Below, in pieces: positions 6,141 to 8,581 of a stretch of 12,178 bases of DNA. Position numbers and translations under genes: made by a program. The notes below the pieces were generated by a model. It did no database searches. It saw nothing but the letters and a program-made list of their open reading frames with translations, and was not told the DNA's origin. Origin of the DNA: a virus (taxonomy: Duplodnaviria > Heunggongvirae > Uroviricota > Caudoviricetes); IMG/VR virus record IMGVR_UViG_2563366883_000010, positions 1 through 12,178 of that record, one strand, 5' to 3'. The stretch's first letter is position 1. Each line of letters opens with the position of its first letter.

Positions 6141-7958
6141 TTAATTTTTTCCATCGTCATTTGTGACCGATGCACATGATGGCATCCAGTATTCTGAATC
6201 CTCTGTCAGGGTCACATTTGAACGCAAACCGTGCTTCGTTTTCCGTTTCATATACTCCCTGCCATATTCCGCCATTGCCCCCGGCATATCTTTACCGAAG
6301 CGCGTCAGTGTTACAGGTTTACCGAATCCGTGTGCCCTCATATATGCCAGATAGGCGTGATAAAGATACCTGCGCGGACTGAACGGAATAATTTCGGCAT
6401 TACCCACTAACAGACCATCACACATTACCGACGACATGAGATAGCCGCAGAAGTCCACCAGCGAATCGCCCTCGCGTTTTATCACCAGAGCTTCTTCTGA
6501 TTTCTGCTGCTCATACAGCAGGCGTTTAGCTTCGTCCTGGTCAGAAAAACGAGTAAGCAGGTGGCGAATCACAACCGCCAGCTCTCCTTCTATTTTTTCT
6601 GCCAGCATGGGGTCGCGTTCGTTTTCCGGTACAACCTCCGAAAAATTGAATATCACCCGACGACGTGAAATCCCCCCGCTGCGGTCACTGAATGACATGG
6701 CGTTATTGTTCACCGCCAACACTACCGCCTGAATGCGTGTTGAGTAGGGGGCTTTATGCTTCGGGTCGATTGCCACCTTGTCACCGCCTGTAATGGCCTT
6801 AATTCCTGCGCCATCACCAGCGTAACGGGTCATATCCGGCATGATAATCAGCGAAAAGCCAACCACTAACGCGCGTTCCCTGGCATCTTCCAGCGCCTTC
6901 ATGCTTGCCGATACCGTGTTGGCCTTACCCGCCAGCATGGTGCAAATCTCCGCCATCACGCTTTTACCACTTCCCCCTGGACCTGTTACCTCAATGAATA
7001 ACTGCCAGTCGTACCGGTTCGCCAGCACCATGAATAATGCAGCCAGTACGCGATCCGCCTTGCGGTCATTCTCAGCCACCGAACGGCGTAACCACTTCCA
7101 GAAATTCGGCGCATGTGTTGCCAGCGTTTCCCCCTCTGCTGGTGGGCTGAAAGGTAATTCACTGGCAATTAACAACCAGTCGTTTTTGTTATGCTCCCGA
7201 AAATTACCTGTTCTGGTATCAAATACCCCGTTACTGAATCCAATCAGGTTACGGGCTGTATTCCCCATTACAGGCAAACTTAACTTCATGGTATCGACCG
7301 CCGATTTAATGGCGTTCTGCGAATAGCTGATCTCCGCATCAATGAAAATCTGTGCCATAGCTCGCTGTAATTCTTTATCCTGTACTGGCTCCCATACAAC
7401 GCCGTTGTAATGGTGAACAGTGTCAGAGTCAGCATGAATCGCCAGTTCACCGCCATAATGTGCCAGGAGAACTTCGCCGCGTTGACTTGCTCCCATCTGG
7501 TTAAGCGCCAGTGATGAAGCGTTATCGTCTTTTACCCGCTCTTTTTTCTTTACAGGCAGTTCAACTACCTTTTTCTTTTCCGCCTGCTCTGCCCGTTCAC
7601 GTTCCAGATATTCGCGCCAGTTCTCCCGTTTCTGGCTGTGCATTCCTTCAGGGTAATAATCAGCATCCCTGACACCTGCCGCTGCCAGTTTCTGCCCGAT
7701 GGTATTAACAAGCCCCGAACGCAATAACCCCGCCTGATAGAGACGCACGCGATAGCGTCCGTCCGGTACGATTTGCAGGTTGTCCAGTTCGGCAAGTTGT
7801 TGCTCTCCAAGCCAGACAGGTGGCACGTTATCGCCAGCCAGTCGCCCGTCCTGTTCCTGCCACTGCTTCGCATGTGCCCACGCATCACTACCCGCAAAAA
7901 TGATGACTTCCGTCATTTTGTCACGTGGCTGGTGTTTTAAATTTGGCGCTTTTTTCAT
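6141..7958 (-). CDS. Replication initiation protein, P4-alpha / D5-family primase-helicase (SF3 NTPase)
   Basis: 605 aa from ATG 7958 (MKKAPNLK...). Walker A VTGPGGSGKSV, Walker-B-like LIIMPDMT, VVLAVNNN; D5_N-like segment NGVFDTRTGNFREH. The track start at 7973 is GTG; the ATG at 7958 overlaps the upstream stop as ATGA. Confidence 0.9.
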   Translation of the reverse strand: MKKAPNLKHQPRDKMTEVIIFAGSDAWAHAKQWQEQDGRLAGDNVPPVWLGEQQLAELDNLQIVPDGRYRVRLYQAGLLRSGLVNTIGQKLAAAGVRDADYYPEGMHSQKRENWREYLERERAEQAEKKKVVELPVKKKERVKDDNASSLALNQMGASQRGEVLLAHYGGELAIHADSDTVHHYNGVVWEPVQDKELQRAMAQIFIDAEISYSQNAIKSAVDTMKLSLPVMGNTARNLIGFSNGVFDTRTGNFREHNKNDWLLIASELPFSPPAEGETLATHAPNFWKWLRRSVAENDRKADRVLAALFMVLANRYDWQLFIEVTGPGGSGKSVMAEICTMLAGKANTVSASMKALEDARERALVVGFSLIIMPDMTRYAGDGAGIKAITGGDKVAIDPKHKAPYSTRIQAVVLAVNNNAMSFSDRSGGISRRRVIFNFSEVVPENERDPMLAEKIEGELAVVIRHLLTRFSDQDEAKRLLYEQQKSEEALVIKREGDSLVDFCGYLMSSVMCDGLLVGNAEIIPFSPRRYLYHAYLAYMRAHGFGKPVTLTRFGKDMPGAMAEYGREYMKRKTKHGLRSNVTLTEDSEYWMPSCASVTNDDGKN

Positions 7959-8254
7959 TTCTGCTCTCTCCACGCGGCAATCATGTTTTTCAGTTCCTGT
8001 AGTTTTTTATCAACATCCATACATGGCACATGGTTATTTCTGGAAGGCGGGATTTCCCGCCTGAATCTGCTAATAAAGATCTCCACGTTCAGCGAACTAT
8101 GAAATGAATAGCCATCACGAATAAAATACACACGGTCAAACATCAGTTCTTTTACCGTTACTCTGTTACCGTTCTTATCCAGATAAATAGCGCCGGGGAT
8201 AATTTTTGGGTGTGCATAACCGCTGGCAGTCAAGCCAGATAAATATGTTCTCAT
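7955..8254 (-). CDS. Hypothetical protein (99 aa), low-GC cargo gene upstream of the replication gene
   Basis: ATG at 8254; stop overlaps the replication-gene ATG. Region is visibly AT-richer than its flanks. No family recognised. Confidence 0.6.
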   Translation of the reverse strand: MRTYLSGLTASGYAHPKIIPGAIYLDKNGNRVTVKELMFDRVYFIRDGYSFHSSLNVEIFISRFRREIPPSRNNHVPCMDVDKKLQELKNMIAAWREQK

Positions 8255-8260
8255 GATTAT

Positions 8261-8581
8261 TTATCCCCGATTTGAATCAGTATTCGCTTTCTTTATGGCA
8301 TTTAATGCATCTGTGGCATTTTCAATGGTGCACCGTAACGAAATATTAAACTGTCCAAGCATTGCCAGTAACAAACCGATATTACCCATATCAATGCGCA
8401 TGGCCTTTTCGTCATATTCCTTATTTTCTGACGCATACCACATCAGGCTACCAATTGACGAAACAGCCATTGATATATTGTCAGTAGCCCCATCCGCAGC
8501 GGAATAAACCTTTTTAGCAATATCATGCTCACAGTTAAAATGCGGATTAATCAGGTACTGGTAATTGGTCATGTCAGGCAT
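8261..8581 (-). CDS. Hypothetical protein (106 aa), low-GC cargo gene
   Basis: ATG at 8581 (MPDMTNYQ...) preceded by CAGGGGGTG SD; this start is embedded in the 3' end of the upstream repeat-family ORF. No family recognised. Confidence 0.6.
   Translation of the reverse strand: MPDMTNYQYLINPHFNCEHDIAKKVYSAADGATDNISMAVSSIGSLMWYASENKEYDEKAMRIDMGNIGLLLAMLGQFNISLRCTIENATDALNAIKKANTDSNRG

Follow-up and report, generated by a model that had tools for sequence, protein, structure and literature searches.

The stretch of DNA examined here, 12,178 nt at its full length (positions 1 to 12,178 of IMG/VR virus record IMGVR_UViG_2563366883_000010; hereafter the window), is a 12.2-kb integrated Escherichia coli phage satellite of the phage-inducible chromosomal island (PICI) type with its own head genes, i.e. 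a capsid-forming one. Our subject is a pair of small open reading frames (ORFs) on its minus strand: ORF1 (8261-8581, ATG start), which encodes a 106-aa acidic protein with a computed isoelectric point (pI) of 4.9, assigned to PHROG 15327/6805, lacking a Pfam match and predicted to form a helical hairpin; and ORF2 (7955-8254, ATG start), which encodes a 99-aa protein of opposite charge (computed pI 9.7) with the DUF4222 domain (Pfam PF13973, E 7.6e-17; phrog_285). The pair forms the middle of a series of genes that are tied together at every junction. The stop codon of a short Icd-like ORF (8574-8744) overlaps the start of ORF1 by 8 nt, within ATGCCTGA; the TAA of ORF1 is followed after 6 nt by the ATG of ORF2, which is preceded by a GGGGA Shine-Dalgarno-like run; and the stop of ORF2 overlaps the start of the primase gene as ATGA. 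The Icd-like ORF, ORF1, ORF2 and the primase are thus chained by translation. Two translationally linked ORFs of 106 and 99 aa had been described in the first-pass annotation of this DNA, and the coordinates given there match exactly. The same annotation saw no recognisable motifs in either protein, which is wrong in the case of ORF2.

The ORF2 protein scores 61.1 bits against the Pfam DUF4222 profile (cut-off 27) over profile positions 1-52 of 53, and matches phrog_285 with an E value of 1.4e-20. A BLASTP comparison with ECs1581, i.e. RgdR, of E. coli O157:H7 Sakai aligned residues 1-99 at 29% identity with zero gaps (E 6e-12). Both are basic proteins of 99 aa with an N-terminal SGLTxSG motif, an R(D/E)GY core and a C-terminal helix, and in both cases the gene immediately precedes and overlaps that of the satellite replicase, the island being of the layout int-alpA-...-primase-ssb-perC. 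ECs1581 lies in Sakai Sp7 (= OI-51/CP-933C), where it precedes and overlaps the replicase gene ECs1582 within the layout int, Icd-like, small genes, replicase, ssb, pchE, capsid and terminase; its computed mass of 11703 Da and pI of 10.09 equal the published values (PMC3378721). Judged by these sequence features, ORF2 is a divergent new member of the described RgdR/DUF4222 family. It is not an RGD-type RgdR, because the RGD tripeptide found at residues 20-22 of RgdR is replaced by P20-G21-A22. The two genes also differ in their upstream neighbours, which are ORF1 in the window and ECs1580 (phrog_5796) in Sakai. ECs1580 was considered as a homologue of ORF1 and rejected, with a BLASTP E value of 0.031 over 18 residues and an hhalign probability of 0.2%; it belongs to phrog_5796/2196.

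RgdR of enterohaemorrhagic E. coli (EHEC) O157:H7 activates LEE1 in the enterocyte-effacement locus (LEE) and type III secretion, represses motility and raises Congo-red binding, a pleiotropic set of transcriptional effects (PMC3378721, Flockhart et al. 2012). In electrophoretic mobility shift assays its DNA binding was of low affinity and not sequence-specific, and the RGD tripeptide, from which the protein takes its name, is important for activation of the type III secretion system (T3SS; PMC3378721). The same study reported the orthologues C1493 (CFT073) and ECED1_1787 (ED1a), aligned OI-51 with partially homologous regions of CFT073 and ED1a in its Fig. 3, and noted divergent 99-aa RgdR copies in O26:H11 strain 11368 (PMC3378721); we find the cassette of the window in this last strain at 98.6% identity. 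Sequence searches for relatives of solved structure returned none for either ORF1 or ORF2. We infer from the family relationship that ORF2 may act as a DNA-binding modulator.

ORF1 corresponds to PHROG 15327 (E 9e-71), which is annotated as of unknown function, and has no match in Pfam or NCBIfam. Searched exhaustively with a profile, 1.84 billion representative proteins yielded only 21 relatives, and a profile search of a 5.8-billion-protein set recovered 136, all from Enterobacterales. The family alignment is nearly gap-free, with a core of the form G-x-S-x-I-G-x-L-M-(F/W)-x-A...Y...D-M...G, and its members are uniformly acidic (pI 4.3-5.6). Distant homologues (25-37% identity) in Klebsiella, Hafnia and Serratia occupy the pre-replicase slot of integrase-linked satellites, with one or two small genes between them and a homologous replicase. 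Homologues are found in this slot in further IMG/VR satellites as well, where the gene order varies. All contexts of ORF1 homologues are satellites or prophages. One distant homologue lies in a Yersinia lambdoid prophage (L010, L011; 6001-6288; 34% GC), where it comes first after a cI-like repressor and opens a long series of small early-left genes; hence, the family is not confined to satellites. For most members from Klebsiella, Raoultella and Serratia, NCBI and UniRef give the name 'ubiquinol-cytochrome C reductase', which looks like a propagated misannotation, as neither Pfam, NCBIfam nor gene context supports it.

AlphaFold modelling of ORF1 with a 71-sequence alignment gave a confident helical hairpin resembling WXG100 proteins, a result that depends on the deep alignment, given that a 5-sequence alignment yielded a predicted local distance difference test score (pLDDT) of 46. 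The predicted helix-turn-helix hairpin of ~100 aa is shared with WXG100/EsxA-type proteins; the likeness is one of fold only, with 5-10% identity, no W-x-G in the turn and no type VII secretion context. The motif LM(F/W)xA...Y ends helix 1 of ORF1, with no G at the +2 position. The family is one that is already catalogued and uncharacterised, to which the present analysis adds the fold, the charge signature and the conserved slot.

Of 5426 complete E. coli genomes, 474 contain the 627-nt stretch with the pair at >95% identity, and in these the two genes are always annotated as a hypothetical protein and a DUF4222 protein and lie between an Icd-like gene and a replicase. The full Icd-ORF1-ORF2-replicase order was seen in 71 of the 80 IMG/VR loci retrieved with ORF2, and the few other IMG/VR loci with the ORF2 allele of the window are ended by a contig edge. 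Megablast breakpoints place the limits of the conserved block at the last Icd-like codons (~8607) and ~140 codons into the replicase (~7538). This block is joined to at least three different capsid/morphogenesis modules (HK97 capsid, protease and portal in the first; capsid and decoration protein, as in classical PICIs, in the second; a protease-capsid fusion, in a 10.8-kb circular record, in the third) and to two replicase catalytic types, D5 in the window and DUF927 in the Sakai type, and it is common to capsid-forming PICI (cf-PICI)-like and classical PICI-like islands. The pair is a fixed part of the regulatory/replication block of many satellites. A search of the INPHARED phage collection gave no DNA or protein match to ORF1, ORF2 or a Klebsiella ORF1 homologue. 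We also observed a 10,790-bp circular record labelled as a plasmid (NZ_CP148328.1, L108), which has no plasmid replicon or mobility typing, contains int, alpA, YlcI/YnfO, Icd-like, ORF1, DUF4222, primase and protease-capsid fusion genes, and resembles an excised circular satellite.

In 50 distinct alleles of each ORF, taken from IMG/VR contigs, the reading frame was intact in every case, and the ratio of nonsynonymous to synonymous polymorphism (pN/pS) was 0.33; both ORFs are real genes under purifying selection. This observation bears on the view that the two are mere ribosome conduits, which relay the control exerted by the leader through its C4 antisense RNA and Icd-like ORF to the replicase, and whose proteins have little function. 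The genes from the Icd-like ORF to the replicase follow each other with overlaps or near-overlaps throughout, which would fit such a relay, as would the fact that the slot accepts unrelated small genes in other islands. Nevertheless, we consider it very unlikely in view of the purifying selection on both proteins, the retention of both families at 25-40% identity across genera and the trans-acting phenotypes of an RgdR-family member (PMC3378721).

ORF1 and DUF4222 genes assort independently of each other. In two loci (L093, L094) an ORF1 of 91% identity has an RgdR-type allele as its partner, DUF4222 is found without ORF1 in Sakai and in L096, and ORF1 is found without DUF4222 in Hafnia and Serratia, with phrog_6610 in its stead. 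The slot can have other contents too: in 98E11 three small genes and a DUF4222 gene, in Sakai ECs1578-1580 together with rgdR.

The base composition of the pair is distinctive: the 627-nt stretch has a G+C content (GC) of 40.7%, versus 50.8% for the whole window, and only 1.3% of windows of 627 nt are equally AT-rich, these being confined to the pair region and the int-alpA intergenic region. GC at third codon positions (GC3), which served as our measure of codon usage, is 41-44% in the pair, 46% in AlpA and 49-66% in all other measured genes. The AT-rich stretch reported in the first-pass annotation is therefore real, the 60-nt sample at 8261-8320 having 36.7% GC and the windowed profile being far from uniform, while the head module measures 51-57% GC, slightly lower than the 55-58% claimed for it. 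What does not survive is the picture of a cassette wedged in between leader and replication gene, which is at odds with its >95% identity in so many genomes, its fixed position between Icd-like gene and replicase and the distant ORF1 homologues in the same slot of other genera. The alternative small genes of the slot are also AT-rich (39-47% GC); hence, low GC is the mark of an exchangeable small-gene slot of phage origin and not of a recent insertion.

Several facts also speak against accessory cargo, in the form of anti-phage defence genes or of a small toxin-antitoxin pair (acidic ORF1 and basic ORF2) inserted in the island. Satellites do carry defence genes, the GC and GC3 of the pair are low relative to the flanks, and an acidic protein is followed by a translationally coupled basic one. 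Yet neither protein matches any PADLOC defence model, and Pfam and NCBIfam reveal no toxin or antitoxin domain in either. Cargo genes of PICIs are variably present and lie at an island end or outside the life-cycle operons, whereas this pair sits inside the coupled Icd-to-replicase chain, belongs to a block conserved across satellite types and includes a member of the RgdR/DUF4222 regulator family. Moreover, ORF1 and DUF4222 part company in the loci named above, and RgdR alone on a plasmid is tolerated (PMC3378721). The cargo function suggested at first is thus, in our estimate, highly improbable.

The last gene of the coupled chain encodes the replicase (6141-7958, minus strand), a P4-alpha-like D5_N/DUF5906/Pox_D5 primase-helicase of 605 aa (Pfam; phrog_864, E 6e-193). 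It starts at the ATG that overlaps the ORF2 stop, as in the RefSeq annotation, and its catalytic part is 50% identical to P4 alpha. Just 3' of this gene, at positions 5900-6135 and without strand assignment, a stretch of 33-39% GC with GGTGAACAGT repeated at least 10 times, in both orientations, constitutes a putative replication origin (ori), the position of which agrees with the PICI ori convention (PMC6092414). The N-terminus of the replicase (~130 residues; window 7538-7958, residues 1-140) has the form MKxAPNxK...IIFAGSDAWAHAKQW... and belongs to phrog_2850. This N-terminal module is common to D5-type primase-helicases, DUF927-type replicases and RepA-family helicases (L003, L015, L016, L096, L098), and in E. 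coli islands it moves together with the ORF1-ORF2 block. A strict pairing of DUF4222 with the shared domain was considered and dropped, as Hafnia and F690 have the domain without DUF4222.

A rival reading is that ORF2, and possibly ORF1, assists the replicase at the iteron origin, whether as a loader or as a cofactor that binds ori or bends DNA, the host phenotypes of RgdR then being side effects. In favor of such an accessory role, a DUF4222 gene overlaps the replicase gene as ATGA irrespective of whether the latter is of the D5 type, the DUF927 type or a RepA helicase, the shared ~130-aa N-terminal domain travels with the cassette, the iteron origin lies just downstream, and ORF2 is basic while RgdR binds DNA (PMC3378721). 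However, DUF4222 is missing upstream of some replicases that have the same N-domain (F690; Hafnia, with phrog_6610), and in the loci L097-L102 the DUF4222 gene is ~1 kb away, upstream of the leader. To our knowledge P4 alpha needs no such cofactor. Homology to a housekeeping replication protein had been named at the outset as the finding that would make the pair ordinary, and searches of Pfam, NCBIfam and solved structures linked neither ORF1 nor ORF2 to a known accessory protein of replication. On balance we regard an accessory role in replication as rather unlikely.

Upstream of ORF1 the leader consists of two tandem modules on the minus strand, each followed by a short Icd-like ORF. The proximal module comprises a c4-a1b1 target element (8951-9000; RF03163, 46.8 bits, gathering score 46.7), a weak isrK-like element (8909-8987; RF01394, 35.2 bits, below the gathering score of 50), a C4 antisense RNA (8796-8883; Rfam RF01695, 72.6 bits, gathering score 45) and the 56-aa Icd-like ORF that overlaps ORF1 (8574-8744; NCBIfam NF033153, 53.7 bits). 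The distal module comprises an isrK-like RNA (9383-9459; RF01394, 61.8 bits), a C4 RNA (9274-9361; RF01695, 75.4 bits) and an Icd-like ORF (9031-9219; NCBIfam Icd-like, 55.7 bits). The long ORFs 9031-9690 and 8574-9080, called 'Ash family' or long 'Icd-like' in RefSeq neighbours, run across these RNA genes and are probably over-extended, with just the short C-terminal Icd-like ORFs 9031-9219 and 8574-8744 looking real. Promoter and terminator scans over the region produced signals no better than those of shuffled sequence. The early operon leads from AlpA through the tandem pair of immunity modules (isrK/C4-RNA/Icd-like) to ORF1 and ORF2, its last two small genes, and on to the replicase and ori.

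By Pfam and PHROG the proteins of the window include int, AlpA, primase, SSB, PerC, HK97 capsid, protease, portal, connectors and HNH, and the listed island genes from int through the head module are all on the minus strand. The integrase gene occupies 10961-12178, and the AlpA-family regulator gene (10398-10586, minus strand; Pfam PF05930, E 5e-18) stands at the head of the same transcription direction. A YlcI/YnfO-family ORF of 59 aa (9718-9897) lies on the opposite, plus strand just upstream of the leader, and such a gene is likewise annotated in related islands. The PerC/Pch-family regulator gene (4918-5190, minus strand) adjoins the gene for the single-stranded DNA-binding protein (SSB), a location that pchE has in Sakai Sp7. 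Repression of LEE1 has been reported for a PerC-like gene of the E. coli PICI EcCIMP1 (PMC11773190); with both a PerC-like and an RgdR-like gene, the island thus holds two families linked to LEE regulation. The nearest RefSeq neighbour of the window is E. coli SHP24 (98% identity across 97% of the window), whose copy of the island is located in tqsA and also contains terminase genes.

The leader of the window has a close parallel in phage P4 (NC_001609, L107), where we find an isrK-like RNA at 8615-8692, the C4/CI RNA at 8420-8507 and, between the latter and epsilon, an Icd-like ORF on the minus strand (8365-8168; 65 aa, MATTLTPSHPEF...) that scores 55.7 bits against a hidden Markov model built from eight Icd-like peptides. 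NC_001609 annotates this stretch in another frame only, as 'cI gene product'. C4 and the Icd start are 52 nt apart in the window and 55 nt apart in P4, and the GTG of P4 epsilon (start 8175) overlaps the Icd-like stop by 8 nt, precisely as at the ORF1 start at 8581. The early suggestion that the pair lies where P4 has its small helper-manipulating factors has therefore been borne out, with ORF1 behind a C4 RNA and an Icd-like ORF in the slot of epsilon. The likeness is one of position: profile comparisons of ORF1 and ORF2 with epsilon and ORF106 gave no match, tblastn found no match in P4, and an hhalign comparison of the 71-sequence ORF1 profile with epsilon returned a probability of 0.06%.

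In P1 the slot behind C4/icd is occupied by Ant, with icd-ant coupling. ORF1 could accordingly be imagined to do the work of epsilon in P4 or Ant in P1, i.e. to be an antirepressor or other helper-manipulating factor that is freed when C4 control is lifted and that provides the satellite with tails by derepressing or redirecting a helper prophage resident in the cell. The shared position and 8-nt overlap argue for this, and distant homologues in L097 and L098 also come after a C4 RNA and an Icd-like ORF. Against it stand the lack of any sequence or profile similarity to epsilon, the homologues of Hafnia and Serratia, which have no C4 or Icd upstream, and the homologue that resides within a lambdoid prophage itself. 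Furthermore, Gram-negative PICIs are induced by the helper via AlpA and not the reverse (PMC6092414; cf-PICI preprint). A strict analogue of epsilon or Ant therefore appears unlikely to us, while a broader role in helper derepression or interference is possible, for ORF1 in particular.

Taking these lines of evidence together, we propose, with about even confidence, that the pair represents C4-gated early accessory proteins made along with the replicase, ORF2 as a DNA-binding modulator and ORF1 as a protein-binding effector. In the quiescent island the C4 antisense RNA would block the leader, as the anatomy of the region and the precedent of P1 and P4 suggest. After induction, translation of the Icd-like ORF would be relayed via the overlapping or adjacent starts to ORF1, ORF2 and the replicase, such that all three would appear jointly at the start of the satellite replication cycle. 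The native job of ORF2 might then be to tune transcription or the accessibility of DNA to the advantage of the induced satellite, host genes being affected only incidentally, and ORF1, in the slot of P4 epsilon, might be aimed at a protein of the helper or the host.

Several observations weigh against this proposal. ORF2 is just 29% identical to RgdR and has PGA where RgdR has RGD, in a region where residue 20 of RgdR matters for the T3SS effect (PMC3378721). The fold of ORF1 is generic, all Foldseek hits in PDB and BFVD having E values above 0.3 and being generic hairpins. The slot is not obligatory, as F690 has four hypotheticals and no DUF4222 there, and Hafnia and Serratia have phrog_6610 where DUF4222 would be. 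Finally, no C4 RNA reaches the Rfam gathering score in the ORF1-bearing satellites of Hafnia and Serratia or in the DUF4222-bearing Sakai Sp7. A universal linkage of ORF1 to C4/Icd was accordingly rejected, with neither found upstream in Hafnia or Serratia, and the C4 gating is lineage-specific.

A bolder version of the proposal would have ORF1 found a new class of C4-RNA-gated satellite effectors, acidic helical-hairpin proteins non-homologous to epsilon though equivalent to it in position, whose target is a regulator of the helper phage or the host (for instance a repressor, or H-NS or another nucleoid protein), with ORF2 as the DNA-binding counterpart and both together reprogramming helper or host at the start of replication. 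If true, it would explain the perturbation of LEE, motility and curli by the RgdR family in EHEC, but we give it little credence.

The finding is real, mostly ordinary and incremental: it offers neither a new mechanism nor a defence system, and of the two families one had been described before. Its useful residue is a link between RgdR-type regulators, the C4-Icd immunity switch and satellite replication, with ORF1 as a candidate helper- or host-directed factor. RgdR, a modulator of virulence in EHEC, is an occupant of a gene slot that many enterobacterial phage satellites share, capsid-forming PICIs among them, and that is connected both with an antisense-RNA immunity switch of the P1/P4 type and with the replicase. 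The RgdR-like effects on T3SS and motility are thereby recast as probable by-products of a function in the satellite life cycle, and the uncharacterised and widely mislabelled ORF1 family is seen to hold the position of the helper-derepression factor of P4. Both genes are cheap knock-out targets in the well-developed PICI systems.

The architecture of the island is the same as that of the capsid-forming PICI EcCIEDL933 and of the classical PICIs EcCICFT073 and EcCIED1a. From size and gene content we infer that EcCIEDL933 is the same element as OI-51/Sp7, the home of RgdR. Published work on PICIs and cf-PICIs gives no role to the small genes upstream of rep. As in the immI operon of P1/P7 (c4 RNA, icd, ant; outlined for P1 in PMC8201110), an effector gene is preceded by, and coupled with, a C4 RNA and an Icd-like ORF, although the genes downstream in the island are unrelated to Ant. 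With the left operon of P4, which consists of CI (C4) RNA, epsilon, ORF151, ORF106 and alpha, the island has in common, in this sequence, an AlpA-like gene, an isrK-like RNA, a C4 RNA, an Icd-like ORF, small genes and an alpha-like primase, and it departs from P4 in its two tandem C4 modules, its own capsid genes and the different N-terminus of its replicase.

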